64,000 nucleotides of DNA from Bryobacteraceae bacterium (GTDB taxonomy: Bacteria > Acidobacteriota > Terriglobia > Bryobacterales > Bryobacteraceae). The stretch's first letter is position 1; each line of letters opens with the position of its first letter. The notes beneath the pieces are model-generated. The model saw only the letters and a program-made list of their open reading frames with translations, made no database searches and was not told the origin of the DNA. This document shows, piece by piece, positions 1 through 45,113 of the stretch. The translations under genes were made by a program, and so were the position numbers. The DNA lies in the NCBI GenBank assembly GCA_035293845.1, contig DATGMB010000240.1, forward strand, positions 1,476 through 65,475. Direction: 5' to 3'.

Positions 1-94
1 CGCAGCGGTTCTGGCGACTCGCTCGTACGGAAACGTCGTTGCCGTACCTTGATCGCCGCAGCCTGCTAAGGATCGAATGTGATGGAATACAGAC

Positions 95-2530: not shown

Positions 2531-2538
2531 CTAAATGT

Positions 2539-2958
2539 GTGTTCGGTGGAACCGTCTGGGAGCTTACTTCGAGGTCAGACTTTACGCGCGTCGCCTCGCC
2601 ATTCTCGGAAGCAGCCCAGGTTCACGTTTGGCTCCATGACTGTCGGACTCAATTTGAGAAACTTGCCGCCGCTAGAGGGGAAGAATCGTGGCGCGCTACA
2701 GTCTACGGACCGCGGAAGTTCGAGGATATGGACCGTGATGATCGTGTCCGGGCTTGCTACCAGCACTGTGCTCTGAAGTGGGTCATGTCGGAACGCATGA
2801 CAAATCAGACTCTACGCGAACGGTTTCGGCTCCCAGAGAGCAAGAGCGCGATTGTCTCTCAGGTGATCGGAGCGGCGATCGACTCGGGACTGGTCAAGCC
2901 GGACGAAGCCGTTGGGGGCTCACGAAAGTATGCTCGCTATTTGCCGTTTTGGGCCTGA
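2539..2958 (+). pseudogene. C-terminal remnant of a RecG-like ATP-binding/HTH regulator (AlbA_2/HATPase_c_4 family), N-terminal domains missing
   Basis: This GTG-initiated 139-aa ORF begins 8 nt after the permease stop. Only the tail (...RACYQHCALKWVMSERMTNQTLRERFRLPESKSAIVSQVIGAAIDSGLVKPDE...KYARYLPFWA) looks like the winged-helix C-terminus of ~450-500-aa proteins of that family. The family was recalled from memory and not searched. Confidence 0.4.
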
Positions 2959-3124
2959 GGGGTTCATTTAAGCTAAAGAGTCTTGACAACACCTCCCCGG
3001 GCGTAAGCACTTGAAAGTCAATAGCTTCTTATTTAAGCTCGTCCTTCGCGGTTCCCCACCGAGGGCGTAAGGTGCGATTCCGGGCAGGATGGCGCGATCG
3101 GCACACGGCAGCGTAGCTCCAGGC

Positions 3125-4096
3125 TCAGTACCGCCACAGCCAGCGGGCTTTCTCCAGCACCTTCTCCACATTCGGCAGGAAGGCCTCTTCGAGCGGCGGG
3201 CTGTAGGGCACGGGCGTATCGGGCGCGGTAACGCGGAGAATCGGCCCGTCCAGGTATTCGAAGACCGTCTCGGTGATGCTCACCGCCAGCTCGCCCGCCA
3301 GGCCCGCGGTGCGGGTGTCCTCGTGGACCAGCAGCACCTTCGAGGTCTTTTTGACGCTCTCGCAGACGGTTTCGCGATCGAGCGGCAGCAGCGTGCGCAG
3401 ATCGACCACCTCGGCCGAGGCGCCTTCCGCAGCCAGCCGTTCGGCGGCTTCGAGGGCAGTCCAGACCATGGCGCCGTAGGCCACGATGGTCAGGTCTTTG
3501 CCTTCCCGGACGACCTTGGCCTTGCCGATGGGCACGGTGTAATCGGCGGCAGGAAGGTCCTCCTTGATCTTGCGGTAGAGGCCCTTGTGCTCGAAGAAGA
3601 TGACGGGGTCGTTGTCGCGAATTGCGGCCTTGATGAGGCCTTTGGCATCGTAGGCCGTCGCCGGCGCGACGACCTTCAGGCCGGGCGTCTTGACGAACCA
3701 CATTTCCGGGTTCTGGGAATGGAACGGGCCGCCGTGGATACCGCCGCCCGAGGGAGCGCGGATCACGATCGGCACGGGCGCGTCCCAGCGGTAGCGGCAT
3801 TTGGCGGCGAAATTCACAATCTGGTCGAAACCGCAGGAAATAAAATCGGCGAATTGCATTTCGGCGACCGGCCGAAGGCCGAGAAACGACGCGCCGATGG
3901 CGGCCCCCACAATGGCGGCCTCGGAAATGGGCGTATCGACGACGCGCTTTTCGCCGAAGCGCTCGAGGAAGCCGGCGGTCACCTTGAAGGCGCCGCCATA
4001 AACGCCGATGTCCTCGCCGATGCAGAACACGGCGGGGTCGCGTTCCATTTCTTCCCAAAGTCCTTCACGGATGGCTTCGAGATAGGTGGTGGGCAT
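3125..4096 (-). CDS. 2-oxoacid (pyruvate/acetoin/branched-chain) dehydrogenase E1 component, beta subunit
   Basis: The 323-aa product reads MPTTYLEAIREGLWEEMERDPAVFCIGEDIGVYGGAFKVT...VVDTPISEAAIVGAAIGA, a transketolase-like pyrimidine-binding plus C-terminal domain pattern. It lies 3 nt downstream of the alpha subunit gene. Confidence 0.9.
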   Translation of the reverse strand: MPTTYLEAIREGLWEEMERDPAVFCIGEDIGVYGGAFKVTAGFLERFGEKRVVDTPISEAAIVGAAIGASFLGLRPVAEMQFADFISCGFDQIVNFAAKCRYRWDAPVPIVIRAPSGGGIHGGPFHSQNPEMWFVKTPGLKVVAPATAYDAKGLIKAAIRDNDPVIFFEHKGLYRKIKEDLPAADYTVPIGKAKVVREGKDLTIVAYGAMVWTALEAAERLAAEGASAEVVDLRTLLPLDRETVCESVKKTSKVLLVHEDTRTAGLAGELAVSITETVFEYLDGPILRVTAPDTPVPYSPPLEEAFLPNVEKVLEKARWLWRY

Positions 4097-17372: not shown

Positions 17373-17683
17373 CTCGGCAGCGGTCCAAGCCGTCCTCGCG
17401 GCCGCTCCGATGCGGCGGGGACGGCCCTGGAGGCAATCGACAGCGCTGCCGGCGACGTTCCCTCACGTGGTTACGCCCACAGTATACGCCGCAGTCGGAC
17501 CGGTGCATCCGAATTGACGGGCTGCGCCCGTAGGACAACGCACGGATCGGGCCTCCAATTTGTCCGAAAAGAAGCGGCCGGCCATAAAAAAATCGAATCG
17601 CGGCCATTCAAACTTCTGCTTTGGCGGCCTGTGGCCGGGCGTTGGACAATGAGGCTGATACTGCGCCGCTCCATAAGGATCGT

Positions 17684-19078
17684 ATGATGCGACATTCCAT
17701 ACTATTTCGTGCGTTCTGGTTAAGTTTTGTGCCGGCCATGTTGCTGGCGCAGGGCACGCCGGACCCGCAGGCCAGGATCGCGGCGCTCGAGACCGCGGCG
17801 CGCAACGCGCAGAGCGCCGGAGACAACGCCTGGATGCTGGTGAGCTCCGCCCTGGTGCTGATGATGACCGGTCCCGGCCTGGCGCTCTTTTACGGCGGAC
17901 TGGTGCGGCGCAAGAACGTGCTCGGCACCATGATGCAGAGCTTCGTGCTGATGGCCGTCGTGACGGTGCTGTGGGCGGTGGTGGGGTACAGCCTGGCTTT
18001 CGGCTCATTTTCGCCGGTCGTGGGCGATTTGCGCTATGCCTTCCTGCACAACGTCGGCGCGGCGCCGAATCCGGATTACGCGGGCACCATTCCGCAGCAG
18101 ACGTTCATGGTCTACCAGTTGATGTTCGCGATCATCACGCCGGCGCTGATTTCCGGTGCGTTCGCCGAGCGGATGAAATTCAGCGCCATGCTGCTGTTCA
18201 CGGTGCTGTGGAGTCTGTTCATCTATTTCCCGATGGCGCACATGGTGTGGGGCAAGGGCGGGCTGCTGAATGCGTTTTTGGGCGGATCGATTCCGTGCTT
18301 CGATTTCGCCGGCGGGACGGTGGTGCACATCACCTCGGGCGTTTCGGCGCTGGTGTGCGCGCTGTATCTGGGCAGGCGCCTCGGTTACCCGTCGGTGCCG
18401 TTCAAGCCGCACAACCTGGTGCTCAGCTTCATCGGCGCCTGCCTGCTGTGGGTGGGCTGGTTCGGGTTCAACGCGGGGAGCGCGCTGGCGGCATCGAGCC
18501 TGGCGACCAGCGCATTTGTGGCGACGCATTTCGGCGCGGCGGCAGCGGCGCTGGGCTGGATGGCGGCCGAATGGATCGGGCACGGCAAGCCGAGCGTGCT
18601 GGGCGGAATCTCGGGCGCGGTCGCGGGGCTGGTGGCGATTACGCCGGCATCGGGCTTTGTGGAGCCGTTTCCGGCGCTGCTGATCGGCGCCTGCGCGGGC
18701 GTGGCCTGCTACTTCATGGTCACAGCCGTGAAGAGCAAGTTCGGGTATGACGATTCGCTCGATGCGTTCGGTGTGCACGGGGCCGGCGGAACGCTGGGGG
18801 CCATCCTCACGGGCGTGTTTGCCACCAGTGCGGTCAATGACGGGCTGAAGGATGCCGCGGGCAAGGTCCTGCCGCTGGGGCTGGTGGACGGCAAGCCGGT
18901 TCAGGTGTTATACCAAGCCGTGGGCGTGGCGATCGCGTGGGTGCTCGCCATCGTGGGGACGATTGTGATCCTGAAGATCTGCGACGCGCTGGTGGGCGTG
19001 CGGATCTCCAAGGAACAGGAGGTCGAGGGGCTCGACCTGAGCATGCACGGGGAGGAAGGATATATTTTCGAGGCGTAG
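17684..19078 (+). CDS. amtB: Ammonium transporter
   Basis: The signal-like N-terminus is MMRHSILFRAFWLSFVPAMLLAQG. Amt motifs are AFAERMKFSAMLLF, DFAGGTVVHITSG and FGVHGAGGTLGAI. Confidence 0.9.
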   Translation: MMRHSILFRAFWLSFVPAMLLAQGTPDPQARIAALETAARNAQSAGDNAWMLVSSALVLMMTGPGLALFYGGLVRRKNVLGTMMQSFVLMAVVTVLWAVVGYSLAFGSFSPVVGDLRYAFLHNVGAAPNPDYAGTIPQQTFMVYQLMFAIITPALISGAFAERMKFSAMLLFTVLWSLFIYFPMAHMVWGKGGLLNAFLGGSIPCFDFAGGTVVHITSGVSALVCALYLGRRLGYPSVPFKPHNLVLSFIGACLLWVGWFGFNAGSALAASSLATSAFVATHFGAAAAALGWMAAEWIGHGKPSVLGGISGAVAGLVAITPASGFVEPFPALLIGACAGVACYFMVTAVKSKFGYDDSLDAFGVHGAGGTLGAILTGVFATSAVNDGLKDAAGKVLPLGLVDGKPVQVLYQAVGVAIAWVLAIVGTIVILKICDALVGVRISKEQEVEGLDLSMHGEEGYIFEA

Positions 19079-19081
19079 CTC

Positions 19082-19420
19082 ATGAACAAGATCGAAGCGA
19101 TTATCCAGCCGTTCAAGCTCGACGAGGTGAAGGAGTCTCTCAAGGCCATCGGCATCGATGGCATGACCATTACGGAAGTGCGGGGCCACGGCCGGCAGAA
19201 GGGCCATAAAGAGGTCTACCGCGGCCAGGAATACAATGTCGACCTGTTGCCCAAGGTGAAGATCGAGCTGGTGGTGCCGGCGGAGCGCAAGGACGAGGTG
19301 ATCCGTACGCTCAGCTTCGCGGCGCGCACCGGCAAGATCGGCGACGGCAAGATCTTCGTCTACGAGGTGGCCGAGGCCATTCGGATCCGCAATGACGACC
19401 GTGGAGACGCCGCCCTCTGA
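19082..19420 (+). CDS. glnK: Nitrogen regulatory protein P-II
   Basis: The 112-aa product reads MNKIEAIIQPFKLDEVKESL...TITEVRGHGRQKGHKEVYRGQEY (T-loop Tyr51). It lies 3 nt downstream of amtB. Confidence 0.95.
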   Translation: MNKIEAIIQPFKLDEVKESLKAIGIDGMTITEVRGHGRQKGHKEVYRGQEYNVDLLPKVKIELVVPAERKDEVIRTLSFAARTGKIGDGKIFVYEVAEAIRIRNDDRGDAAL

Positions 19421-21773
19421 CCTGCTGACGCTGGCGGAGCGGACGGCACAGGTGGACCGGCTGGCGGCAGAGGTAGAGGATCTGCCGCACCAGGGATTTG
19501 CTCTGCTGGCGGTCGGGGGCTACGGGCGCCGGCACCTGTTTCCGTATTCCGATATCGACTTGCTGCTGCTGTTCGAATCCGAGCGGCTGATGACGGCGTC
19601 GAAGCCCGCCATCGCGGCGTACCTGCAGCGGCTCTGGGATGCGGGGCTGCGGGTGAGCCAGTCCGTGCGGACGCCGGCGGAGTGCCTGCAGGTCCACCCG
19701 GATAATATCGAATTGAACGTCAGCCTGCTCGACCAGCGGTACCTGGCGGGCGACCGCGCGCTATACGCGGAGCTCGCGCGCCGGCTGCCGCACTTCCTGC
19801 AGGCGAGCCGCGAGCCGCTGGCCCGCAACCTGACGCAACTGGCGCGGCAGCGCCACGCGCGCTACGCGGACACCTTCTACCATCTGGAGCCGAACGTCAA
19901 GGAAGGGCCGGGCGGGCTGCGCGATTATCAGCTCCTGCGCTGGCTCGACCAGTTACGGGACAGCGGGGGGAGCGAGCCCCCCGCCGAGTTGCGCGAGGCG
20001 TTCGCCTCGCTGGCGCACATCCGCTGCTTCCTCCACCAGCAGGCCGGGCGCGACCAGAACGTGCTCACCTTCGACGCGCAGGATGCGCTGGCCGAGCACG
20101 AGCACGCGGGCGACTCCGCCGCGTGGATGCGCGGCTACTACCGGCACGCGCGCGCGGTGTTCCGCGCCGCGGCGCGAGCGATGGAAAATTCCGAAGCGCA
20201 CGCGAGCGCCCTGTTCGCGCAGTTCCGCGACCGGCGCTCGCGGCTCAGCAATGCCGATTTCAGCGTGCTGCGCGGGCAGGCGCATTTCCGGACGCCGCAA
20301 CGGCTCGCGGCGCAGCCGGAATTCGTGCTGGAGCTGTTCGAATTCACCGCGCGGCACGGTGTGCGGCCATCCTTCGAAGCCGAGCAGCAGATCCAGGACC
20401 GGCTGCCGCAGTTGCGCCGCCATTTCGCGGAGCCGCCGGGCGCGCCGCTGTGGCCGGCGGTTTCCCGCATTCTGGAGCTGCCGCACGCTGCCGCCGCGGT
20501 GCGCGCCATGCACGACTGCGGGGTGCTGGGCGCGATTTTTCCGGAGCTGGATGGAATCGAGTGCCTGGTCGTGCGGGACTTCTATCATCGATACACGGTC
20601 GATGAGCACACGCTGGTGGCGCTCGACAAACTCGCGGCGGCGGACGGGCCATTCCGCGATCTGCTGGCGGAAGTTCGGGCGCCCGCGGTGCTCCGCTTCG
20701 CCTTGCTCTTCCACGATTCGGGCAAAGCGGCCGGGGAAGGCCACGTGGATGCGGGCCTCCGGCTGGCGGAAGCCGCGGCGCGCCGCATCGGCATGCCGCC
20801 GCCGGAGCGCGATACGGTCTTGTTCCTGATCCGCCGTCACCTGGATCTCTCCGCGGCGATGCGGTCGCGCGACCTGTTCGACCCGGAAGCGATCCACGCG
20901 CTGGCGCAGCAGGTGGAAACGGTGGAGCGGCTGAAGGCGCTGGCGCTCCTCACGTACGCCGATATCAGCGCCGTGAATCCCGCCGCGATGACGCCGTGGC
21001 GCGCCGAGCAGCTCTGGCAGCTCTACCTGATGCTTCACGCGGAATTCACGCGGGAGCTGGAATCGGAGCGCGTGGAGGCAGCGGATTCCGACTTCCTGCG
21101 CGGTCTGCCGACGCGGTACCTGCGGACCCACACGCCGGAAGAGATCGAGATGCACCTGGCGCTCGAAGCGCGCCGGGCGAGCGCGCCGGGCGGCGTGGCC
21201 GTGGATTTGCGGCGCCTGGACGCTGCGTGGCAGCTTACGCTGATCGCAGGCGACCGCCCCGGCCTGTTCGCTGCCGCCGCCGGGACCATCTCCAGCTTCG
21301 GGATGAACATCGTCCGGGCGGAGGCATTCGCCAACAGCCAGGGCCTGGTGCTCGATACATTCGCGTTCGAGGATCCGCACCGCACGCTGGACCTCAACCC
21401 GCCGGAAGTGGAAAGGCTGCGCGCCACGGCCGAACGCGTGATTGCGGGCAAGCTGAACGTGCGCGATCTGCTGCGCCATCGGCCGAAACCGCCGCTGCCG
21501 AGCCGCAAAGCGGCATTCGCGCCGCGGATTTCGTTCGATTCGGACGCCAGCCGGTCCGCCACGCTGGTGGAAATTGTCGCGCAGGACCGGCCGGGGCTGC
21601 TGTACGATTTGGCCTCGGCGATTTCAGCAAGCGGGGCCAATATCGAGGTGGTGTTGATCGATACGCAGGCGCATAAGGCGATCGACGTGTTCTACGTGAC
21701 CGCTGGCGGGCACAAGCTGGATGAGCAGCGGCAGGCGGCGCTGGGCGAGGCGCTGCGTAAGGCGGCGGGATAG
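19392..21773 (+). CDS. glnD: [Protein-PII] uridylyltransferase/uridylyl-removing enzyme
   Basis: The nucleotidyltransferase motif is GGYGRRHLFPYSDIDLLLLF and the HD domain reads LLFHDSGKA. Two C-terminal ACT-like repeats follow. The ORF overlaps glnK by 29 nt, so the true start is uncertain. Confidence 0.9.
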   Translation: MTTVETPPSDLLTLAERTAQVDRLAAEVEDLPHQGFALLAVGGYGRRHLFPYSDIDLLLLFESERLMTASKPAIAAYLQRLWDAGLRVSQSVRTPAECLQVHPDNIELNVSLLDQRYLAGDRALYAELARRLPHFLQASREPLARNLTQLARQRHARYADTFYHLEPNVKEGPGGLRDYQLLRWLDQLRDSGGSEPPAELREAFASLAHIRCFLHQQAGRDQNVLTFDAQDALAEHEHAGDSAAWMRGYYRHARAVFRAAARAMENSEAHASALFAQFRDRRSRLSNADFSVLRGQAHFRTPQRLAAQPEFVLELFEFTARHGVRPSFEAEQQIQDRLPQLRRHFAEPPGAPLWPAVSRILELPHAAAAVRAMHDCGVLGAIFPELDGIECLVVRDFYHRYTVDEHTLVALDKLAAADGPFRDLLAEVRAPAVLRFALLFHDSGKAAGEGHVDAGLRLAEAAARRIGMPPPERDTVLFLIRRHLDLSAAMRSRDLFDPEAIHALAQQVETVERLKALALLTYADISAVNPAAMTPWRAEQLWQLYLMLHAEFTRELESERVEAADSDFLRGLPTRYLRTHTPEEIEMHLALEARRASAPGGVAVDLRRLDAAWQLTLIAGDRPGLFAAAAGTISSFGMNIVRAEAFANSQGLVLDTFAFEDPHRTLDLNPPEVERLRATAERVIAGKLNVRDLLRHRPKPPLPSRKAAFAPRISFDSDASRSATLVEIVAQDRPGLLYDLASAISASGANIEVVLIDTQAHKAIDVFYVTAGGHKLDEQRQAALGEALRKAAG

Positions 21774-25263: not shown

Positions 25264-26664
25264 ATGTCCCTCGCCCTGGCAGATCTGAAACGGGAATTCC
25301 GTCCCATGCTGCGGCTGGCCGCGCCGCTGGCAGCGGCCGAGGTCGGCGGGATGGTGATGGGCATCGTGGATACCATCATGGCCGGGCCGCTCGGCCCGGC
25401 GGCGGTGGGAGCGGGAATCCTGGGGAACATGATCTTCTATCCCCTGGCCAGCAGCTTCATCGGCATGCTGCTCGGCATGGATACGCTGGTGGCGCAATCG
25501 CATGGCGCGGGCGATCCGCGCGACTGCCGCCGCACCCTGATCAATGGATTCTGGCTCGGCCTGCTGATCACGCCGTTGATCGCCGGCCTGATCCTGGCGG
25601 CTCTGCCGATCATCGCCGCCTCTGGCGCCAATCCGCGGGTCATGGAGCAGTGCACGCCCTACGCGCACGCGCTGCTGTGGGGAATTCCGGCGTTTATGCT
25701 CGCCACGGCGTTCCGGCGCTATCTGCAGGCGGTGGATATCGTGCACCCGATCACGTTCGCGCTCGTCAGCGCCAACGCGGTCAATGTCGCGGGCGACTGG
25801 GCGCTGATGTACGGCCATCTGGGCGCGCGCGCGATGGGCCTGGCGGGATCCGGATGGTCGACCTCCCTTTCGCGCTTGTACATGATGCTGGTGCTCGGGG
25901 GCGCGGTGGTGTGGAACGAGCGGCGAACGGGCGGACTGCTCTTCCGGATGAGCTGGCGGCCGGATCTGGCGCGCCTCCGCCGGCTCATCGCGCTCGGGCT
26001 GCCGGCCACCGGGCAGATTGCGTTCGAAGGCGCGGTCTTCGGCGTCGTCACGGTGCTGGCGGCCCGGCTGGACGCGGTCTCTCTTGCCGCCCACGGGATC
26101 GCTGTGCAGGTCATCGCCACCACATTCATGGTGCCGCTGGGGATCAGTTCCGCCGCCGCGGTGCGGGTCGGGCAGGCAATGGGACGCAAGGACGCGCGCG
26201 GCGTGGCCGCGGCCGGATGGGCGGCCCTGCTGCTCAGCAGCCTGTTCATGGGCGCGGCCGGCGTCGCGCTGTGGACTGTGCCTCGCTGGATCGTGCGCGT
26301 ATTCATCGCCGATGCCGCCGTGATCGCATCGGGCGCGGTGCTGCTGCGCATCGCCGCGTTCTTCGAGCTGTTCGACGGCCTGCAGATCGTGGCCACCGGC
26401 GCGCTAAGGGGCGTTGGCGACACGCGCACGCCGATGATCGCGCACCTCATCGGCTACTGGGTCATCGGGATGCCGGTGGCGTATGCGCTTTGCTTCCGAT
26501 TCGGCTGGGGCGCGCCCGGAATCTGGGTCGGGCTGAGCGCCGCGTTGATCCTGATCGGAGCGGCGCTGGTGTGGGTGTGGCGATCGGCGGCCCTCAAAAA
26601 CTCCAGAGAACGCTCGTATACCCCGTATTCGCGTGAAAGTTCTGGTAGTAGCCCAATAAATTGA
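25264..26664 (+). CDS. MATE-family multidrug/toxin efflux transporter
   Basis: The 466-aa product has a ~12-TM profile. Its N-terminus LKREFRPMLRLAAPLAAAEVGGMVMGIVDTIMAG is typical of NorM/DinF-type MATE proteins. Confidence 0.85.
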   Translation: MSLALADLKREFRPMLRLAAPLAAAEVGGMVMGIVDTIMAGPLGPAAVGAGILGNMIFYPLASSFIGMLLGMDTLVAQSHGAGDPRDCRRTLINGFWLGLLITPLIAGLILAALPIIAASGANPRVMEQCTPYAHALLWGIPAFMLATAFRRYLQAVDIVHPITFALVSANAVNVAGDWALMYGHLGARAMGLAGSGWSTSLSRLYMMLVLGGAVVWNERRTGGLLFRMSWRPDLARLRRLIALGLPATGQIAFEGAVFGVVTVLAARLDAVSLAAHGIAVQVIATTFMVPLGISSAAAVRVGQAMGRKDARGVAAAGWAALLLSSLFMGAAGVALWTVPRWIVRVFIADAAVIASGAVLLRIAAFFELFDGLQIVATGALRGVGDTRTPMIAHLIGYWVIGMPVAYALCFRFGWGAPGIWVGLSAALILIGAALVWVWRSAALKNSRERSYTPYSRESSGSSPIN

Positions 26665-28666
26665 ATTGCTGGTTGTAGTTATAAAACTGATATCCCGCGT
26701 TCCAACGGAGTTTCTCCGAGATCCGGATCGATAAGCGCGCCATCGGCGCGTGATAGGTCAGCGGGAACGTCTGCACGGAATCGAGCAGCGATGCGATCGG
26801 GTCCGTAACGCCCGCGGGCGCCGGGGCGGGCCGCCCGTCGCCCGTATCTTTCGTGATCGAATATCCGAGGTACACATCCGCGCGCCGCCGGACGGCGAAG
26901 TGCGCCGCCAGCGTGCCGGAATGGATGTTGCTCAAGTAATACGACACATAGCCCGTTTGTAATTGCGTGCGGAAGCCGGCGCCGGCGAAGAACGCGAGGC
27001 CGCCGGTAGTGTCCAGGTGCAGCTTGAGGTAACTGGCGTCGATCGAAAACCAATCCCGCGGCGTCCAGGAGCCGCCCGCGCTGTACTGCCGCGAATGCGA
27101 ATCGAACGGCGTGAGTGTGGAGGGCGCGTTCAGGTTGTAATCCTGGCGGTATCCCGCGGAAAGCTGCACGCGGCGCGTGCGGTACTCGGCGCGGCCATGG
27201 ATCGAGTGGAAGTTCTTCTCGCTGACCGGCGTGAGCGGGTTATTCGACCGCCCGATGCCCGCGTCGAGGGTCACGCTGAAGGGCTTCCACGGCCGGAAGC
27301 GCACTCCGGCGCGCGCCGAGTTCATATGGTTGCTGACCTGGTAGACATCGTTCTCGGTGGAGTTGGCGAAGGCGGGAATGGTGAGCCCTTCCACGGTGCG
27401 CACGGGCCGGTCGGAGTAATCGTAGCCCGCGAAAAAGCCGAGCTTCGGGGTGAGCCGGTAATCTACGGTGGTCGCGTTGGTGTACATGCGCACGCCGAGA
27501 TAGCGGAAGTAAACCGTCGCGCCGGTGTTGAGCCCGTTGTCTAGTTCGGTGTAACTGGAAGGCCCGTCCGTGCGGTTGCTCAGCACCGATGTCCCGTTGG
27601 TCACGGTCAGCCGTTCGGTGGGAAATAACTGCACGGTGAAGTTGCCGGCGAGGTCGTCGCGATGGGCATTGCCGCCGGCAACGATCTGGCGGGCAGCGGC
27701 CGCGCCGAACTGGCTCGTGCCGAGCGCCAGCTCATCCAGCAGGAAGTCGTTATTGCCGCTGACATAGGTGAGACGCGCGTCCATACCCCAGCGTTTGCGG
27801 CGCGTGAACAGGTTGCCGAGCCAGCCGGGATTGGCGCCGTGGATGGGCGCGGCGCGGTTGAAGTGATTGAGCACGGTCTGGTCGCCCGGCGTGGCGGAGC
27901 CGATGGCGCCGGCGGCGGCCGAGTAGGGCGTGTCGTCCTTGAAAAAATCCCAGCGCCGCGTGACGGTGAAGCGGAATCCGGCAAAATCGAATTCGGCGCC
28001 CAGGCGGTACTCGTTCCAGTGGCGCTTTACATCCAGGAACACCGGGTAGCCGCTCCCGTTGGGATCGAACTCCTGCGCGGTGGAAAGCGCCGGGCCATCC
28101 TCCGTGTTCCGGCCGTAACCGAGGTGGAAGCGGATGCGCGACTGAGGGAACAGCGTCAGCTCGTGGTCCTGCATGCGCCGCTCGGTATCCATGCTGTGCA
28201 GCCCCTGGGTTGCGAGCAGCGGGACCGCGCCGGAAATGCCGAGACCGTAATTGCCCGTGGCGGTCAGGGCCGGATTGTAGTAATCGTCCAGGCGCCAGAG
28301 CAGATCGTACCGGTAGAGGCCGTTCTTTTCCGCGTGAAGCATGGCGGACTGGTACGGATCGCCGCCAAGGCCCAGAGTGTTCAGCAGAATCTCGTCGAAC
28401 AGGCGGCCGTGGCCGTCGCGGGAACGGATGGCGAAACTGCTCCCCAGCAGCCGCGCGCCATCATGGTAGTTATCGACGCTGCGGTACATGCCAAGATCGC
28501 CGCCCGGCATCGCCCAGCGGTAGCCGAGTTCCCAGGACTGCGTGATGTTGTAGTCGCTGCTGTTTTCGCCGCGCGGCCCGCCGACCTGCGCCGGGGTGGG
28601 CGCCACGGGTTCCTGGGCCGCCGCCGCCACTGCCAGTCCCACGAGAATGCAGATACGCGTCGCCAT
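26594..28666 (-). CDS. Outer-membrane beta-barrel protein, MtrB/PioB-like (690 aa)
   Basis: The start at ATG 28666 has a GAGGTG RBS, 5 nt after the decaheme gene stop. The signal peptide is MATRICILVGLAVAAAAQEP. Composition is rich in alternating Tyr/Gly/Asn/Arg strands and the C-terminus is ...SVLWSF. The family assignment rests on size and synteny only. Confidence 0.6.
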   Translation of the reverse strand: MATRICILVGLAVAAAAQEPVAPTPAQVGGPRGENSSDYNITQSWELGYRWAMPGGDLGMYRSVDNYHDGARLLGSSFAIRSRDGHGRLFDEILLNTLGLGGDPYQSAMLHAEKNGLYRYDLLWRLDDYYNPALTATGNYGLGISGAVPLLATQGLHSMDTERRMQDHELTLFPQSRIRFHLGYGRNTEDGPALSTAQEFDPNGSGYPVFLDVKRHWNEYRLGAEFDFAGFRFTVTRRWDFFKDDTPYSAAAGAIGSATPGDQTVLNHFNRAAPIHGANPGWLGNLFTRRKRWGMDARLTYVSGNNDFLLDELALGTSQFGAAAARQIVAGGNAHRDDLAGNFTVQLFPTERLTVTNGTSVLSNRTDGPSSYTELDNGLNTGATVYFRYLGVRMYTNATTVDYRLTPKLGFFAGYDYSDRPVRTVEGLTIPAFANSTENDVYQVSNHMNSARAGVRFRPWKPFSVTLDAGIGRSNNPLTPVSEKNFHSIHGRAEYRTRRVQLSAGYRQDYNLNAPSTLTPFDSHSRQYSAGGSWTPRDWFSIDASYLKLHLDTTGGLAFFAGAGFRTQLQTGYVSYYLSNIHSGTLAAHFAVRRRADVYLGYSITKDTGDGRPAPAPAGVTDPIASLLDSVQTFPLTYHAPMARLSIRISEKLRWNAGYQFYNYNQQFNLLGYYQNFHANTGYTSVLWSF

Positions 28667-28671
28667 GCGGT

Positions 28672-29613
28672 TCACCTCAGGAAATACTGGTCGGCATTGG
28701 ACCCGTGAATGCGCACGTGGCACGCCGTGCACCGCTGGAATCGGGGGTCGAGCAGATTGTGCCGCGCCGATTGAATATCCACGCCCTGGTTGCGCGTGCC
28801 GGAGCCGCCGCCGTTGTGGCATTCCAGGCAGAGCGTGAACACCACCGGCCGCCGCAGCAGGCGGGCATTCATCGAGCCGTGCGGATAATGGCAAGTGTTG
28901 CAGCCCTCCACCGCCACCGAGGGATGCTCGTAAACGAACGGCCCGCGCTTATCCGCATGGCATTTCAGGCACGGCTGCTCATTGCCCAGAGCCTGCTCGA
29001 CCATGCGCGGCCGCTGCCCCATCGCGGAGGTGGGAGCGAAGGCGCCGTGCGGATTGTGGCAGTCCGAGCATTCCATGAAGCCCTCGTCGACGCGGTGTTT
29101 CGAGGGCATGGCGAACTGCGCGCGAATGGTGGCGTGGCAGGTATAGCACAGCTCGTGCTCCGGCTTGGCCAGCAGGTGGCGGGACGCGGAGGAATGGTGG
29201 ATCGAGTGGCAGTTCGTGCAGGCCACACCGTTCAACGTGTGCTCCGAGCGCTGGATGTTGACCTTGCCGAAATCGCGCGCGTGGCATCCCAGGCAGTCCT
29301 CCATCACCTGGGCGGTGGTCATGAGCGAGAACGCGTGCGGAATCGTCGCCTTGCCGCCGCGCGCCTCCACGTGCGCCGCGCCCGGGCCGTGGCAGCCCTC
29401 GCAGCCGCTCCGCGCCGGCGGCGCGTCGCCCGAAACCAGGGTCTTGAAATGCGGATTGCGGTAAAAATTATGCCAGACGTCCGGATGGCAAGTGCGGCAC
29501 GCGTTGCTTCCCACGAAGCCGCCGGGGGCGTGGGTTACGTTCAATTGGGTCTGCGCCGCCGCCACCCCCACCCACACCAAGAACCAAAGGACCAGCCACC
29601 CGGCGCGTGCCAT
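28672..29613 (-). CDS. Periplasmic decaheme c-type cytochrome, DmsE/MtrA/PioA/MtoA family
   Basis: The 313-aa product has a signal peptide and exactly ten CXXCH motifs: CRTCH, CEGCH, CLGCH, CTNCH, CYTCH, CSDCH, CLKCH, CNTCH, CLECH, CTACH. The C-terminus is CTACHVRIHGSN. Confidence 0.85.
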   Translation of the reverse strand: MARAGWLVLWFLVWVGVAAAQTQLNVTHAPGGFVGSNACRTCHPDVWHNFYRNPHFKTLVSGDAPPARSGCEGCHGPGAAHVEARGGKATIPHAFSLMTTAQVMEDCLGCHARDFGKVNIQRSEHTLNGVACTNCHSIHHSSASRHLLAKPEHELCYTCHATIRAQFAMPSKHRVDEGFMECSDCHNPHGAFAPTSAMGQRPRMVEQALGNEQPCLKCHADKRGPFVYEHPSVAVEGCNTCHYPHGSMNARLLRRPVVFTLCLECHNGGGSGTRNQGVDIQSARHNLLDPRFQRCTACHVRIHGSNADQYFLR

Positions 29614-29651
29614 ACTCAGAATGATACTGAAGTGTTTGGGTCTTAGAACAC

Positions 29652-34800: not shown

Positions 34801-35451
34801 ATGAAAATCGGAACCATGATTCTCGCAGCGGGTATCACGGCCTTGGGGCTCGCTACGCTCCTAACCCCCGGCAAAGCCCAGGGCCCGCTGTACGATCGCG
34901 TGGATGTCCACATCCCCTACAGCGTGACCGTCGGCGACAAGACGCTACCGCCGGGAGATTACGTCATCCAGCAGATGCGCGACCAGGGCGGTGGAAGCCG
35001 CGTACTGTTGATCTACTCGGAAAATGGCACCAGATTCGAAACGTCGGCGATGACGATTCCCGCTCTGGACGTGAATACGCCCGAGCACACCTCGGTCGTG
35101 CTGCATCATTTCGGACCGGACTATTACTTCGACAGGGTCTGGATTCAAGGAAAGGACTACGGCTACGAATTCCCGCTCCCGGCGGCTGTGAAGATGCGTG
35201 AGAAGGAGAGGATGGAGCCCGTCACGCTCGCCGCCACGTACTCCACGGTGACCGAGCAGGCGCCTCCGGCCGCTCCGGAATCGACGCCCGCACCGCCGGC
35301 GCCGACCACCACCGCGCCGCCGCCTCCGGCCCCCGCTCCGGCACCGGCACCGGCTCCCGCAATCCCGAAGACTTCCGCCGGCTGGCTCATGATGCTGCTG
35401 GGCGGCAGTTCGCTTTCCGGCGTCGGCCTCGCGCTGCGCCGCAAACGGTAA
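34801..35451 (+). CDS. Secreted protein with C-terminal sortase-type sorting signal (IPKTSAG + TM + RRKR)
   Basis: The signal peptide is MKIGTMILAAGITALGLATLLTPGKAQG, followed by a ~140-aa domain and a Pro/Ala/Thr linker (…PAPAPAPAPAPA). The C-terminus is IPKTSAG-WLMMLLGGSSLSGVGLAL-RRKR. It lies immediately upstream of the sortase gene. Confidence 0.6.
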   Translation: MKIGTMILAAGITALGLATLLTPGKAQGPLYDRVDVHIPYSVTVGDKTLPPGDYVIQQMRDQGGGSRVLLIYSENGTRFETSAMTIPALDVNTPEHTSVVLHHFGPDYYFDRVWIQGKDYGYEFPLPAAVKMREKERMEPVTLAATYSTVTEQAPPAAPESTPAPPAPTTTAPPPPAPAPAPAPAPAIPKTSAGWLMMLLGGSSLSGVGLALRRKR

Positions 35452-35496
35452 CGCCAATCGAAAACACGAGCGCCCCGAATCCAAAGGACCTGGCCC

Positions 35497-36153
35497 ATGT
35501 CACGCAAGCGGCTCAATACGATCTCCTTCCTGCTGATCGCCGCGGGCGCGTTTTTCCTGCTATGGGGCGCTCGTGAATATATCGGTTCCCTCACCGGCCA
35601 GGTCGAAGCCGAGCACGAATTTGAGCAATCGCTGTCCACAGGCTCTCCACCGCCCGAAGTCTCCGAATCTCCCAACACGGATTCCGAACCTCCCCTGCTC
35701 GAGACGGAGCCCGCGCCAACCCCGGCCCCCGCGCGTCCCAAACCCGGCGAGACCGTCGCCAAGCTGACGATTCCCCGTCTCGATGCCAAGCTGTACGTGG
35801 TGGAAGGCGACCGCATGGCCGATCTCCGCCGCGGCCCCGGCCACCTCATCGGCACGGCCATGCCGGGCGTCAACGGCAACTGCGTCATCGCGGGCCACCG
35901 CGATACCCACTTCCGCGTGCTCAAGGATATCCGCAAGGGCGACGACATCATCATCGAGACGTCCGCCGGCGAATACCTCTATCGCGTCCGCTCCGAGCGT
36001 GTGATCTCGACCGAGGACACCGAAGTCCTCGATCCTACCCCCGATGCCGAGCTCAGCCTGATCACCTGCTATCCGTTCTATTACGTCGGCAACGCCCCGG
36101 AGCGCTTCCTGGTGGAAGCGCAGCTCGTCGGCGCCATCCGTTCGTCGTCGTAA
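35497..36153 (+). CDS. Sortase-family cysteine transpeptidase
   Basis: An N-terminal TM anchor and a Pro-rich linker are followed by the catalytic His (VIAGHRDTHF), the Cys in LSLITCYPF (TLxTC-like) and a conserved Arg (APERFLVEA). Confidence 0.8.
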   Translation: MSRKRLNTISFLLIAAGAFFLLWGAREYIGSLTGQVEAEHEFEQSLSTGSPPPEVSESPNTDSEPPLLETEPAPTPAPARPKPGETVAKLTIPRLDAKLYVVEGDRMADLRRGPGHLIGTAMPGVNGNCVIAGHRDTHFRVLKDIRKGDDIIIETSAGEYLYRVRSERVISTEDTEVLDPTPDAELSLITCYPFYYVGNAPERFLVEAQLVGAIRSSS

Positions 36154-40465: not shown

Positions 40466-43400
40466 ATGAACCGCCTGATCGCTGCCGTAGCGATTCCCGC
40501 CGCGTTCGCCGCGGCGGCGCTTGCCCAGACGCCATCGGTCACCTTCCTGGGCATGGATACCACCACGCGTGGAAACTGGAAAGGAGTATACGGATCGGAT
40601 GGCTATGTGCTATCCGATTATGCGCTCGCCGTGCCTTCCTACAGCCAGTTCAACGCCGTCAACGTCAATCAACGGCTGCTGGATACCTGGAGCTGTTCGC
40701 CCGACCCGGGCTTCACCTGCGATCCCCGCGAGTTGCAAAAGCAGCCCTACGCCTACAGCCCGCTCGAGCGCGTCGAAGGTTATTACTATAGCCGGATGTC
40801 GGACGATTTCCAGTTAAGCACCACCGACGGGCAGACTCACCGTATTGCGCTCTACTTTTGCGACTATGAGTTCTACGGGCGCCAGATTAGCGTAATCGCA
40901 CATAACACCAATACCGGTGCGGTTCTCGACACCCGCACGCTGAATAACTACTCCGGCGGCGTGTACCTCGTCTATAACTACACCGGCAACGTGGATTTCG
41001 AGGTCCTCGATAACATCGTGCCCACCACCGACTACATCCCCAACGGCACCGTCAGCGGCTTCTTCTGGGGTGGCTCGGGCGGCCCGCCCACGCCCGCGCC
41101 CAATGGCCCGGTGGTGAATTTCAGCCCGCTCGGCCCGCAGTCCGGGGCGGTGGTTTCCGGCACGGTGCCGATCCAGGTCTCGCTCGATGACGTTCCCGGC
41201 GTCACCAGCGTACAGCTCCAGCTCGATGGCCAGAACCTCGGGGCGCCCATGCAGTACTTCGTCACCAATCCGATCGGCAACCCGCCGGTGCCGCTGCCCT
41301 TCAACTACAACTGGGACACCACCACCGCAACCAACTGCTCCCATACCCTGACCGCGATCGCCATCGACGCGAATGGATTCCAGGGGGCTTCGCCGGCGCT
41401 CACCCTGACCGTGAATAACGGCCCGTCCAACTGCGGCAACAATCCCACGCCCGTCGCCACTCCGACGTTCAGCCCACTGCCCGGCGCATTCAACACGACC
41501 CAGCAGGTCTCACTGAACACCACCACACCCGGCGCCTCGATCCGCTACACCACCGATGGCGTCACCAACCCCACGGACACGGGCGGCACGCTGTACACCG
41601 GGCAGCCCATCACGGTCGCGAGCACTACCACGATCAAAGCGATCGCCTACGAATCCGGCATGCCGGACAGCAGCATCGCCACCGGAACCTATACGATCAA
41701 CACCGGACCCCGCGGCGGCGGAACGCTGGGCCTGGTGCAGTCGAATGGCGCCGCCAGCGGAGCGCCCGGCAATACTTACCAAACCGTCGCTTTCAATAGC
41801 CCGGTTGCGGGCGGCGATACGATTTTCGTCTTCGCGCAATACTACGGTCCGGCTGTCACGGCCACCGCCACCGATACCTGCAACGACCAGTTCACGCCGA
41901 TCTCCGGCTCGCCGGTCAGCAACGGCTCGAGCGGCACGGCGCATTGGTGGGTGGCGAAGAACGTGGCCGGCGGCAACTGCCAGGTGACCGTGAGCTACAG
42001 TTCGCCCACTTCCTACGGCGGCATCGCCATCCTGGAGGTCTCCGGCCTCGGTCCGAATCCGGCGCTCGATCAGCAGGGCAGCGGAACCGGCAACAGCGGT
42101 ACGGCGTCCGCTTCCCTCAACGCCTCCGTCGCGAACAGCTTCGCCATCGCGCAGGTCTGGTCGGATGCCGGTGGCGGCGTCTCGCTGGGCGGTAACTGGA
42201 CCACCCAGGAGCGCACTCGCTTCTCCACGCTCTACCAGAGCAACATGGCGGGCTGGCAGATTTTGTCCGCGCCCGGTGCGGCCGGGGTCTCTGCCGCGGT
42301 GGGCAGCGGGCCATGGATTGCGATGGTGGCCAATTTCTATAACCCCGGCGGCAGCCCCGGCCAGGTCGCGAACCCGGCGTTCAATCCGCCCGGCGGCGCT
42401 TACACGTCGCCGGTCGCGATCAGCACCACGACCGCGGGCGCCACCATCCGCTACACCACGGACGGCAGCACGCCCTCGGAAACGAACGGAACCATTTACA
42501 CCGCGCCGATCGCGCTGAGCGCCACCACCACCATCAAAGCGATCGCCTATAAATCCGGCCTGACCGATAGCGGCGTCGTCAGCGCAACCTATACCGTAAG
42601 CAAGGGGACCGTGGCCAGCCCGGTGTTCAATCCGCCGGCCGGGGCCTACACCATGCCGGTGGCCATCAGCAGCGCGACACCGGGCGCGACCATCCGCTAC
42701 ACCATCGACGGCAGCACACCATCCGAGACGCACGGCACGGTTTACAGCGCGCCGATCACGCTGGCCGCGACCACGACCATCCAGGCGATCGCTTATGAGA
42801 GCGGGTATACCGATAGCCCCGTGGTCTCCGCCACCTACACCGTCGGAGCGCCGCCGGGCATTTCGCTCGTGCAGTCCAACGCCACCGCGACGTCCGCGCC
42901 CGGCAATACCAGGCAGTCGGCCGCGTTCAGCTCGCCCACGGCCGCCGGCAACACGATTTTCGTGTTCGTCCAGTATTACGGCCCAGCCGTGACCGCCACC
43001 GCCACCGACACCTGCGGCGACCAGTTCCAGGAAATCTCCGGCTCGCCCGTTTCCAACACCAGCGGCGACCGCGGCGCGGCCCACTGGTTCCTCGCGAAGA
43101 ACATCGGCGGCGGCTCCTGCATGGTGACCGTGAACTACAGCTCGCCGACCAACTACGGCGGCGTCGCCATCTTCGAAGTGTCCGGCCTCGGCGCGAATGT
43201 GATTCTCGATCGGTCCGCCAGCGGCTCGGGCACCGGCGGAACGGCTTCGGCATCCATCGCGACCACCCACCCGAACAGCTTCGCCATCGCGCAGGTCTGG
43301 TCGGATGCCGGCGGCGGCGTTTCGCTGGGCGGCAACTGGACGACCCAGGAACGTACCCGCTTCTCGACGCTCTACCAGAGCAACATGGCCGGTTTCCAGG

Positions 43401-43489
43401 TGCTCGGCTCGACCGGCACGGTATCCCTTGCCACAACAGTAAACTACGGCCCCTGGATCGCCATGGTCGCCAACTTCTACGGCCAGTGA
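40466..43489 (+). CDS. Large secreted multidomain protein (1007 aa): N-terminal GNWKGVYG domain, Ig-like domain, three chitobiase/hexosaminidase-C-like (Fn3-associated) modules and two copies of an unknown ~205-aa domain
   Basis: The RBS GGAGGAG precedes the signal peptide MNRLIAAVAIPAAFAAAALAQT. The ...GA(S/T)IRYT(T/I)DG..P....GT.Y..PI....TTTI(K/Q)AIAY(E/K)SG module occurs three times (aa 329-412, 634-711, 716-793). The unknown domain spans aa 421-625 and 799-1005. Confidence 0.75.
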   Translation: MNRLIAAVAIPAAFAAAALAQTPSVTFLGMDTTTRGNWKGVYGSDGYVLSDYALAVPSYSQFNAVNVNQRLLDTWSCSPDPGFTCDPRELQKQPYAYSPLERVEGYYYSRMSDDFQLSTTDGQTHRIALYFCDYEFYGRQISVIAHNTNTGAVLDTRTLNNYSGGVYLVYNYTGNVDFEVLDNIVPTTDYIPNGTVSGFFWGGSGGPPTPAPNGPVVNFSPLGPQSGAVVSGTVPIQVSLDDVPGVTSVQLQLDGQNLGAPMQYFVTNPIGNPPVPLPFNYNWDTTTATNCSHTLTAIAIDANGFQGASPALTLTVNNGPSNCGNNPTPVATPTFSPLPGAFNTTQQVSLNTTTPGASIRYTTDGVTNPTDTGGTLYTGQPITVASTTTIKAIAYESGMPDSSIATGTYTINTGPRGGGTLGLVQSNGAASGAPGNTYQTVAFNSPVAGGDTIFVFAQYYGPAVTATATDTCNDQFTPISGSPVSNGSSGTAHWWVAKNVAGGNCQVTVSYSSPTSYGGIAILEVSGLGPNPALDQQGSGTGNSGTASASLNASVANSFAIAQVWSDAGGGVSLGGNWTTQERTRFSTLYQSNMAGWQILSAPGAAGVSAAVGSGPWIAMVANFYNPGGSPGQVANPAFNPPGGAYTSPVAISTTTAGATIRYTTDGSTPSETNGTIYTAPIALSATTTIKAIAYKSGLTDSGVVSATYTVSKGTVASPVFNPPAGAYTMPVAISSATPGATIRYTIDGSTPSETHGTVYSAPITLAATTTIQAIAYESGYTDSPVVSATYTVGAPPGISLVQSNATATSAPGNTRQSAAFSSPTAAGNTIFVFVQYYGPAVTATATDTCGDQFQEISGSPVSNTSGDRGAAHWFLAKNIGGGSCMVTVNYSSPTNYGGVAIFEVSGLGANVILDRSASGSGTGGTASASIATTHPNSFAIAQVWSDAGGGVSLGGNWTTQERTRFSTLYQSNMAGFQVLGSTGTVSLATTVNYGPWIAMVANFYGQ

Positions 43490-43525
43490 TTCACACTGCG
43501 CCGCGCCTGGCCGATAAGCCAGACT

Positions 43526-43825
43526 GTGACGCGGTTCTGGAATGACGCTCTGGCAATCCTCGATACGGCGAGCCGGGCGCCCGAGGCTGGCGCGGCAAAC
43601 GGCCTGGCCGTAGTGGTCGAGCGCTCCGGCGGCTTGCGGATTGTGATGGGCGAAGGCTGGAGCGCCGAAGGCCTGCAAGCGCACTTCGGCGCCTCCGCGG
43701 TCTACCAGGTGACACATTCGCCGCGGTCCGTATGTGTCGAAGGCCGCGGCCCCGGCGAGAGCTGCACCCTGCGCCGCTCCGTTGTAGGGCAGGTCCATGG
43801 CCTGCCTTACGCTCTCCTTTCCTGA
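43526..43825 (+). CDS. Hypothetical small protein (99 aa, GTG start)
   Basis: The ORF has high GC3 and fits the 37-nt gap before the next gene if that gene starts at 43863. I recognise no family, and it could be non-coding. Confidence 0.3.
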   Translation: MTRFWNDALAILDTASRAPEAGAANGLAVVVERSGGLRIVMGEGWSAEGLQAHFGASAVYQVTHSPRSVCVEGRGPGESCTLRRSVVGQVHGLPYALLS

Positions 43826-43862
43826 AGGCCACAGGCCCGCCCCGCGGCGTTACGATATCTCC

Positions 43863-45113
43863 ATGCGTTTCACCATCCCCGCCGTGGCTTTCGCCGCGCT
43901 TTCCGTTCTGCTGCTGGCCCAGTCCAACCGCCCATCCGATCCGCGCAGTCAGACCACCTTCTTCGTCCATCGCCTGTCCGACGACCACGCCGAAGGCATC
44001 GCCCTCCTCGATATGAACGGCGATGGCCGCCCCGATCTCGTGAGCGGCGCTTACTGGTACGAGAATCCAGGTTCGCAGGGCGGCGAGTGGAAGCGCCACC
44101 AATGGCGGACCGTCGACATCGTCGGCGAATTCGTCTCCGACTGCGGGGAATGGGCCGTCGATGTTAACCACGATGGCGCGCCCGATATCGTCACCGTCGG
44201 CTGGATGACCGACGGGCTCTGGTGGTACGAGAATCCGAAGAAGCCGGACGTGCTCTGGCAGCGCCACCTCATCGCCCACACGATCGAGACCGAAGGCGGC
44301 TGGATGGCCGACCTCAATGGCGATGGCAAGCCCGATCTCGCCCTCGCCCATTACGGCCACGCCGGCATGTTCTGGGTCGATTTCGCCGGTGCCGAGCCGG
44401 CCGTCCACCACGTGGGCGGCTCCGCCGAGGACGGCCACGGCGTCGGCATCGCCGATATCGATGGCGACGGCAAGCCCGATCTGCTCTCGGTCCACGGCTG
44501 GTTCCGCAATCTCGACGGCGGCCACGACCGCTGGGAGTGGCACGGCGAATGGAACCTCGGCGACGCCGGTTTCCCCATCATCGGCTACGACGTCAACCGC
44601 GACGGCCGCATGGACCTGATCTACGGCCAGGGCCACAATTACGGCCTTTACTGGCTCGAGCAGAAGCCGAACCACGAGTGGCAGCGACACGTCATCGACC
44701 AGTCCTTCTCCCAATCCCATGCCCTGGCGATGGCGGATCTCGATGGCGACGGCGAGCCCGAGCTCATCACCGGCAAGCGCTACCGCGGCCATGACGGCGG
44801 CGATCCCGGGTCCTACGATCCGCTGGTCGTCTATTACTACAAGCTCAATCGTGCAACCCAGGAATGGTCGCGCGTGCCGATTTCCGTGAACGGCACGGCC
44901 GGCGTCGGCACCCAGATCCTCGCCGCCGACTTGGATGGCGATGGCGACCTGGATCTCGCCACCGCCGGCAAGACCGGCGTGCATTTCTTCGAGAACCTGC
45001 GCGTTAACACGGTGCCCAAAGCGCAGCGCGAGAAGGAAATCCTGCTGAATCACACGAGCTGGCCGTTCCCCGGCGAAGGCTCGCCCGCGGAGTGGCAGCA
45101 TTCCAAGAAGTAG
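43863..45113 (+). CDS. FG-GAP/VCBS-repeat (integrin-alpha-like beta-propeller) secreted protein
   Basis: The signal peptide is MRFTIPAVAFAALSVLLLAQS. The motif D(L/M/V/I)(N/D)GDG.PD(L/I) recurs at least 7 times (DMNGDGRPDL, DLNGDGKPDL, DIDGDGKPDL, DLDGDGEPEL, DLDGDGDLDL, ...). Confidence 0.8.
   Translation: MRFTIPAVAFAALSVLLLAQSNRPSDPRSQTTFFVHRLSDDHAEGIALLDMNGDGRPDLVSGAYWYENPGSQGGEWKRHQWRTVDIVGEFVSDCGEWAVDVNHDGAPDIVTVGWMTDGLWWYENPKKPDVLWQRHLIAHTIETEGGWMADLNGDGKPDLALAHYGHAGMFWVDFAGAEPAVHHVGGSAEDGHGVGIADIDGDGKPDLLSVHGWFRNLDGGHDRWEWHGEWNLGDAGFPIIGYDVNRDGRMDLIYGQGHNYGLYWLEQKPNHEWQRHVIDQSFSQSHALAMADLDGDGEPELITGKRYRGHDGGDPGSYDPLVVYYYKLNRATQEWSRVPISVNGTAGVGTQILAADLDGDGDLDLATAGKTGVHFFENLRVNTVPKAQREKEILLNHTSWPFPGEGSPAEWQHSKK

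Follow-up and report, generated by a model that had tools for sequence, protein, structure and literature searches.

A two-gene locus in a 64,000-nucleotide (nt) stretch of DNA from a Bryobacteraceae bacterium (assembly GCA_035293845.1, contig DATGMB010000240.1, forward-strand positions 1,476 to 65,475; hereafter the window, in whose numbering all window positions are given) encodes a decaheme c-type cytochrome followed by an outer-membrane beta-barrel. We propose that these two proteins form the MtrA-MtrB core of an Mtr-type porin-cytochrome conduit, that the MtrCAB system to which they belong is probably split across the genome, and that electrons probably flow outward through it. From sequence comparison and a structural model of the barrel we place the probability of this reading at about 0.6. 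The pair belongs to a known system, as a divergent member, and lies in the window as follows.

28672..29613, minus strand: mtrA/dmsE-like periplasmic decaheme c-type cytochrome of 313 amino acids (aa), with a signal peptide, ten CXXCH motifs and a match to TIGR03508.

26594..28666, minus strand: predicted mtrB-like 26-strand outer-membrane beta-barrel of 690 aa, with a signal peptide, placed by AlphaFold2 and Foldseek.

28667..28671, minus strand: 5-nt intergenic gap between cytochrome and barrel; a GAGGTG stands shortly before it, within the 3' end of the cytochrome gene.

29614..29651, no strand: 38-nt divergent intergenic region between the cytochrome and an aminotransferase gene; any promoter overlaps this region or sits in the adjoining coding sequence.

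The cytochrome was placed by its heme motifs and by its family matches. A motif scan returned exactly ten CXXCH (residues 39, 71, 107, 132, 156, 182, 215, 238, 262 and 295) and no CX3-4CH variants, so that the secreted ten-heme protein described at this position by an initial annotation of the DNA was recovered in full. In 20,000 shuffles of the same residues the mean number of CXXCH was 0.1 and the maximum was 3. Sixteen of the 26 histidines lie outside the motifs, which would be enough for bis-His ligation of ten hemes. Read by eye, the N-terminus (MARAGWLVLWFLVWVGVAAA/QTQ) is a Sec signal peptide, and the C-terminal signature that the initial annotation pointed out is present as CTACHVRIHGSN. 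The TIGR03508 model (DmsE family decaheme) scored 266.3 bits against a cut-off of 192.2 and was covered over positions 1-257 of 258, whereas NF041028 (GSU2203/OmcK family) gave 212 bits, under its cut-off of 325. The sole strong sequence match in the PDB was 6r2q chain A, the MtrA chain of the Shewanella baltica Mtr complex (E 2.4e-33 across residues 29-307), with all ten CXXCH motifs of the two proteins aligned one to one. NrfB reached just E 5e-4, and this difference ruled out an NrfB-like periplasmic cytochrome, the identity that the initial annotation had named as fatal to its proposal. Since the TIGR03508 cut-off was passed and all ten motifs align with those of MtrA, we class the protein by sequence as an MtrA/DmsE-family decaheme, as had been claimed.

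Sequence models gave a different answer for the barrel. The protein begins with a signal peptide (MATRICILVGLAVAAAA/QE) and ends in the aromatic motif VLWSF, and these features, its length, its position 5 nt downstream and the decaheme-then-barrel gene order all agree with the initial annotation. That annotation had also made a match to MtrB/PioB-type models a requirement of its proposal, and on sequence no such match exists: searches of Pfam and NCBIfam, PF11854 and TIGR03509 included, gave nothing at E<=1. Neither did phmmer or searches with two family profiles against PDB sequences, where MtrB too went unmatched. Among more distant members of the barrel family, PF11854 matched none of ten, and TIGR03509 matched one of 53 diverse members marginally (E 0.07). 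NF041027, the GSU2204 family, gave weak C-terminal matches in 21 of the 53, the best at E 4e-10, and no match to the window barrel itself. No plug or TonB-box Pfam domain was found. The mature barrel contains no cysteine, likewise true of 56 of 58 family members, and it therefore lacks the N-terminal CXXC that is a feature of Shewanella MtrB (PMC12175506). By these models the protein stands outside the curated MtrB/PioB family as now modelled. Its own family is large, with at least 787 clusters at 90% identity, all named "hypothetical" and mostly from Bryobacteraceae or Terriglobia metagenome-assembled genomes (MAGs), and with 1576 representatives at 50% identity (E<=1e-3).

The predicted fold points to MtrB. 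An AlphaFold2 model built on 58 sequences reached moderate confidence (predicted local distance difference test, pLDDT, 73.7; predicted template-modelling score, pTM, 0.64) and contains 26 beta-strands of at least 8 residues. MtrB has 26 strands, as cited in the supplement of a recent preprint (bioRxiv 10.64898/2026.05.27.727921). When this model was compared with the PDB by Foldseek, the top match was 6r2q_B, the MtrB chain (E 2.3e-17, template-modelling (TM) score 0.62/0.65, 14% identity), and all other matches were 22-strand TonB-dependent receptors at TM ~0.3-0.45. Identity as such a receptor was rejected, since the barrel lacks a plug domain, has 26 strands where such receptors have 22, and reaches a TM of only ~0.4 to that class. 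The strand count that the initial annotation had proposed as a check thus came out in favour of MtrB, and its term "MtrB/PioB-like" is borne out by the predicted fold and not by the sequence models. Because the fold model is MtrB-like, we kept the functional MtrB-type reading despite the silent hidden Markov models (HMMs); in predicted architecture the protein is MtrB-like, and it is probably a remote homologue.

If there were no conduit at all, the decaheme would carry or store electrons as a soluble protein of the periplasm, and the barrel would be an outer-membrane protein with no link to it beyond a common operon. Such an arrangement would suit a barrel that has no recognisable sequence family, whose AlphaFold2 confidence is just moderate, and whose structural matches include TonB-dependent-receptor barrels. 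We consider it highly improbable. The 26 strands are those of MtrB and not 22 plus a plug, the TM of 0.62-0.65 to MtrB compares with ~0.4 for the receptors, and plug and TonB-box matches are missing from the Pfam results. Furthermore, the two genes stay adjacent in ~78 genomes, and in family members just 25% identical, despite changing neighbourhoods.

This adjacency was measured by scanning one genome per GTDB species, which yielded 357 barrel relatives; the best 80, at 49-64% barrel identity, were used for locus counts. All but three, which bear other labels, are listed as MAGs of Bryobacterales, Solibacteraceae or Terriglobia, in keeping with the acidobacterial background suspected from the letters alone. 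An open reading frame (ORF) with ten CXXCH directly precedes the barrel in every related locus that has upstream DNA, and for 75 of 78 loci the intergenic distance falls between -4 and +10 nt, with the barrel start codon chosen heuristically. In the window, the barrel ATG at 28666 lies 5 nt past the cytochrome stop, with GAGGTG 7-12 nt upstream of it, an arrangement in which co-transcription and translational coupling are likely. The two genes are tightly coupled and strictly co-conserved across Bryobacterales.

No third gene shares this conservation. All-vs-all clustering of the ORFs around 84 loci returned no further conserved neighbour of the pair; the MatE/XerC/TrmFO side of the window locus is common to ~28 of the 84, and the aminotransferase/GFO_IDH side to ~20. 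Because the flanking genes vary while the pair persists, it is the pair as a unit that is under selection. We conclude that it is a stable functional unit whose partners are variable or encoded elsewhere. The closest relative, GCA_037025425.1, is fully syntenic at 96% barrel identity. At the other end of the range, barrel-family members just 25-28% identical still follow a decaheme, there within larger cytochrome clusters, one of which includes an NrfH/NapC-like 544-aa protein and others of which include large cytochromes bearing MtrC-type domains. The first of these (L084:6475-15180, on a Logan SRR22356423 contig) holds a distant relative of the pair, with a barrel of 775 aa, in a seven-gene cytochrome cluster alongside a 440-aa multiheme protein, two smaller cytochromes, a monoheme cytochrome and the 544-aa protein. 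It is possibly a complete inner-to-outer-membrane pathway for this barrel family. A Solibacteraceae MAG (L039:421-6481, CAYMHP010000002.1) carries two giant multiheme ORFs ~2.5 kb upstream of its pair on the opposite strand, one of 1324 aa with 51 CXXCH and one of 667 aa with 23 CXXCH.

The window itself encodes no partner for the pair. In a six-frame CXXCH scan of both strands across all 64 kb, the cytochrome was the sole open frame with more than one CXXCH, and the three-component MtrCAB layout, which needs a second multiheme ORF, is therefore absent. There is no gene for MtrC, for a CymA/NapC-type protein or for a small c-type cytochrome anywhere in the window, which extends to its whole length what had been claimed for the neighbourhood, and Pfam scans of ~45 window genes gave housekeeping functions only and no redox partner. 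Among the 80 related loci, 79 have no MtrC within +/-10 kb of the pair. The remaining one, L015 from a Stordalen palsa MAG, has an OmcA/MtrC decaheme directly after the barrel (TIGR03507, 498 bits against a cut-off of 209), and its barrel is 61% identical to that of the window. Shewanella MtrC is a lipoprotein. The L015 protein (L015:12281-14302) has an ordinary signal peptide, MRKYLASALLALAPVVLFNIASA/DD, without a lipobox cysteine, and surface anchoring of the Bryobacterales MtrC must therefore differ from that in Shewanella.

Homologues of the L015 MtrC are abundant and highly conserved, at 75-86% identity, and were solitary in every locus inspected. In 58 of 58 loci seeded on this protein (5 from genomes or assemblies and 53 from Joint Genome Institute (JGI) metagenomes) no MtrA- or MtrB-like gene stands beside mtrC. 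The five genome or assembly loci comprise one on an 8.67-Mb chromosome and four others, the latter in two further distinct neighbourhoods. Two genomes (L090:2719-8725 and L151:1-4731) have a common context upstream of the solitary mtrC, consisting of a FecR/zf-HC2 anti-sigma-like protein (821 aa), a DJC28_CD protein, a GFO_IDH oxidoreductase with a twin-arginine (TAT) signal and an epimerase, with a gene for an extracytoplasmic function (ECF) sigma factor ahead of it in L090; this FecR/ECF-type context could be a regulator of mtrC. Both parts of the system were found together on one contig, the 2,099,385-bp contig_40104_np1212 of ERZ26871208, where a pair at ~0.655 Mb and a solitary mtrC at ~1.143 Mb (TIGR03507, 501 bits) lie ~486 kb apart. 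The pair on this contig has the same divergent aminotransferase and GFO_IDH neighbours as that of the window, and its barrel is 59% identical to the window barrel. The description of the locus as a minimal conduit without MtrC thus holds for the locus and is unsafe for the genome, since relatives encode MtrC either next to the pair or ~486 kb away. "Without MtrC" can be said of the locus, but not with confidence of the organism.

The same observations bear on an alternative in which the conduit truly lacks MtrC, as MtoAB and PioAB do. The terminal heme, exposed at the barrel mouth, would then itself exchange electrons with substrates that are dissolved or complexed, among them Fe(II), chelated Fe(III) and humic quinones in solution, and the pair may work inward, in Fe(II) oxidation or electron uptake. 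The absence of MtrC from 64 kb here and from the surroundings of the pair in 79 of 80 related genomes is what this alternative would lead one to expect, and the two-gene layout fits the published view of PioAB and MtoAB as lacking an extracellular multiheme component. The cysteine-free barrel, without the CXXC of Shewanella MtrB, fits as well, and iron reduction has been reported for Magnetospirillum AMB-1, whose MtrAB comes without an MtrC (PMC7005843). We nevertheless regard a conduit of this kind as unlikely, given that the relative sharing the aminotransferase-side synteny has an unlinked MtrC, that MtrC is joined to the operon in L015, and that the Mto/Pio accessory genes (mtoD, mtoC/cymA and the pioC high-potential iron-sulfur protein) were not found in the window. 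Bryobacterales, moreover, are known as organotrophs rather than lithotrophic iron oxidisers.

Comparison with characterised systems places the pair nearest to Mtr while setting it apart from each of them. With Shewanella MtrCAB (PDB 6R2Q) it shares the decaheme family, all ten heme motifs being alignable between the two cytochromes, the order cytochrome then barrel, and a barrel predicted to have 26 strands for which MtrB is the best structural match. It differs in that the barrel is 14% identical to MtrB, goes unseen by PF11854 and TIGR03509 and has no N-terminal CXXC, and in that mtrC is missing upstream and cymA, omcA and mtrDEF are missing from the vicinity. MtoAB of Sideroxydans and Gallionella and PioAB of Rhodopseudomonas palustris resemble the pair as decaheme-plus-barrel cores with no adjacent surface cytochrome. 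The pair, however, has no adjacent mtoD, mtoC/cymA or pioC (the window holds no other c-type cytochrome or redox-protein gene that could be such a carrier), a relative of it has an unlinked MtrC, and the MtrB/PioB models, which do cover MtoB and PioB, fail to detect its barrel. PioA carries an N-terminal extension; the window cytochrome has none like it.

Two further decaheme-barrel systems come into view through the curated families. GSU2204 of Geobacter sulfurreducens, encoded with GSU2203 (OmcK) and represented by NF041027 and NF041028 respectively, belongs to the nearest curated sequence family of the barrel, and both Geobacter genes are up-regulated with hematite and magnetite (PMC4070692). 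The resemblance is limited: the cytochrome stays at 212 bits below the cut-off of 325, the matches within the barrel family are below cut-off with none for the window barrel, and GSU2204 proteins carry CXXCH and can be selenoproteins, whereas the mature window barrel is free of cysteine. Shewanella DmsE-DmsF is likewise a decaheme-plus-barrel core, and the top-scoring curated model of our cytochrome is named for DmsE. One could therefore suppose that the pair is a DmsEF-like module whose electrons go to an extracellular terminal reductase without heme, such as a molybdoenzyme, with its gene at another place in the genome. Partners of MtrAB cores need not be cytochromes, since the DmsEF of Shewanella works with extracellular DmsAB (PMC8805035, PMC9732548). 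Nonetheless, no DmsAB-like or other oxidoreductase gene occurs near the pair in the window or in the 80 related loci, and MtrC is the only surface partner ever seen adjacent, which makes a DmsEF-like role improbable.

Closest in taxonomy are the Bryobacterales clusters already described. In 2018, candidate mtrA/mtrB homologues were reported for Ca. Solibacter and Bryobacter, "none with complete operons" (PMC5900883). Baker et al. (2022) then described "Group 5", an MtrCAB of Bryobacterales with a tetraheme encoded downstream (PMC8805035), and the EET2 cluster of the preprint is the same four-gene cluster of mtrC, dmsE, porin and a TsdA-like tetraheme, in which the porin has no conserved domains and its model matches MtrB at TM 0.68 (bioRxiv 10.64898/2026.05.27.727921). 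The acidobacterial system is thus less uncharted than the words "poorly characterised" in the initial annotation implied. Compared by published description, the pair and these clusters come from the same order, have a decaheme that matches TIGR03508, and have a porin that is domainless yet MtrB-like. They differ in that the tetraheme is found in 0 of 80 loci related to the pair and MtrC in 1 of 80, there downstream and not upstream. When the four-gene EET2 locus was sought by seeding on the L015 MtrC, solitary mtrC loci alone were returned. Because the search in the preprint was seeded on extracellular cytochromes (bioRxiv 10.64898/2026.05.27.727921), two-gene loci lay outside its design.

The mechanism that we propose for the split MtrCAB follows the Mtr model. 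The 26-strand barrel would sit in the outer membrane with the rod-like decaheme threaded through it, and a chain of ten bis-His hemes would carry electrons between periplasm and cell surface. On even to slightly better than even odds, the conduit would be capped by a surface decaheme of the OmcA/MtrC family encoded at an unlinked locus of the source genome. The balance tips slightly toward electrons moving mainly outward under anoxia, to Fe(III), humic or particulate organic acceptors. Within this organotrophic order, Paludibaculum reduces Fe(III). MtrC has been linked with reducers rather than oxidisers (PMC7005843), and Mtr-like clusters of Bryobacterales are transcribed in anoxic peat (bioRxiv 10.64898/2026.05.27.727921). 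It is these links to reduction and to anoxia, together with the habit of the order and of Paludibaculum, that lead us to favour outward transfer. At the inner membrane, an ImcH- or CbcL-type enzyme would be a more likely feeder than CymA. A 2018 survey of Acidobacteria found 0 CymA, 2 CbcL/MtoC and 19 ImcH homologues (PMC6295460), and the absence of CymA is therefore expected.

Several points weigh against this reading. The barrel fails both curated MtrB/PioB sequence models, and its homology to MtrB rests on a moderate-confidence model (pLDDT 74) together with weak, transitive matches to the GSU2204 family. For the threading of the decaheme through the barrel, the support is the strict co-conservation of the two genes. 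Beyond the 64 kb, mtrC may be truly absent from the source genome; just a single relative, at 59% barrel identity, is proven to have both the pair and an unlinked mtrC; and the solitary MtrC could instead serve separate Bryobacterales clusters of the four-gene mtrCAB-plus-tetraheme type. Lastly, because MtoA and PioA form no function-specific clades in published trees (PMC8805035), the direction of transfer is unreadable from sequence.

We note that the immediate neighbours of the pair are as the initial annotation gave them, a MatE gene and a divergent aminotransferase gene. The class-III aminotransferase gene lies on the opposite strand with its start 38 nt from the cytochrome gene. The intergenic region at 29614-29651 appears AT-richer than the flanking DNA. 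A sigma-70 consensus scan found 1 site against 0.9 expected from shuffled controls, which is no excess, and the promoter and terminator scans were altogether uninformative. On the other side, the MatE gene is convergent with the barrel gene and their 3' ends overlap by 71 nt (26594-26664), so that no terminator would fit between the two genes; the 96%-identical relative shows this overlap too. Antisense ORFs at 27662-28708 and 28705-29646 on the plus strand were rejected as high-GC shadow frames. The minus-strand frames were taken as the real genes because their GC content at third codon positions (GC3) is 0.79-0.83. A mobile island was rejected as well, since the GC of the pair equals the window mean and the adjoining integrase-family gene stands in a xerC/trmFO-like context that is syntenic in ~28 related loci.

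Further out, a nitrogen-regulation cluster (ammonium transporter, P-II and GlnD uridylyltransferase) occupies 17588-21773 and is followed by the trmFO and xerC-like pair that adjoins the MatE gene, where the integrase-family gene is housekeeping-like and shows no sign of a mobile element. Positions 1-4000 have a GC of 0.56-0.60 against a window mean of ~0.65, and a MacB/FtsX-type ABC permease gene lies within this stretch at 95-2530; the stretch may be of foreign origin or may merely differ in composition. A sortase-family gene beside a 216-aa protein without assigned function was seen at 34801-36153, and at 40466-45113 a 1007-aa protein with repeated CHB_HEX_C/Fn3_assoc domains accompanies an FG-GAP repeat protein. 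The products of these two regions are probably cell-surface proteins unconnected with the conduit pair.

Three aspects of the pair appear to be new: a two-gene form conserved across ~78 or more species genomes, a barrel family outside PF11854 and TIGR03509 and nearest to GSU2204, and an mtrC that is unlinked from the pair, with a rare mtrA-mtrB-mtrC locus. With the barrel outside both models in ~80 or more species, HMM surveys of iron-cycling and electron-transfer genes probably under-count these organisms. The unlinked mtrC indicates that a partner absent from a locus, even from 64 kb around it, is no evidence of a "minimal" system. The pair is also compact enough to be tested by heterologous expression or, in Bryobacteraceae that can be cultivated, by genetics. 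Bryobacterales are an abundant order of soil and peat, Acidobacteriota dominate many acidic soils and peatlands, and the pathway of the "missing" anaerobic CO2 production of peatlands is debated. The pair alone may act as a bidirectional conduit for humic substances. Alternatively, and as a tentative proposal to which we give less than even odds, Bryobacterales may run a dispersed Mtr system, in which a near-universal two-gene mtrAB, with a barrel family hidden from tools built on current MtrB/PioB HMMs, works with a solitary, highly conserved mtrC at a distance of hundreds of kb. Should the parts assemble into one conduit, then much of the extracellular-electron-transfer capacity of the Acidobacteriota would have been under-counted, and an Mtr system would be able to work without operon linkage.

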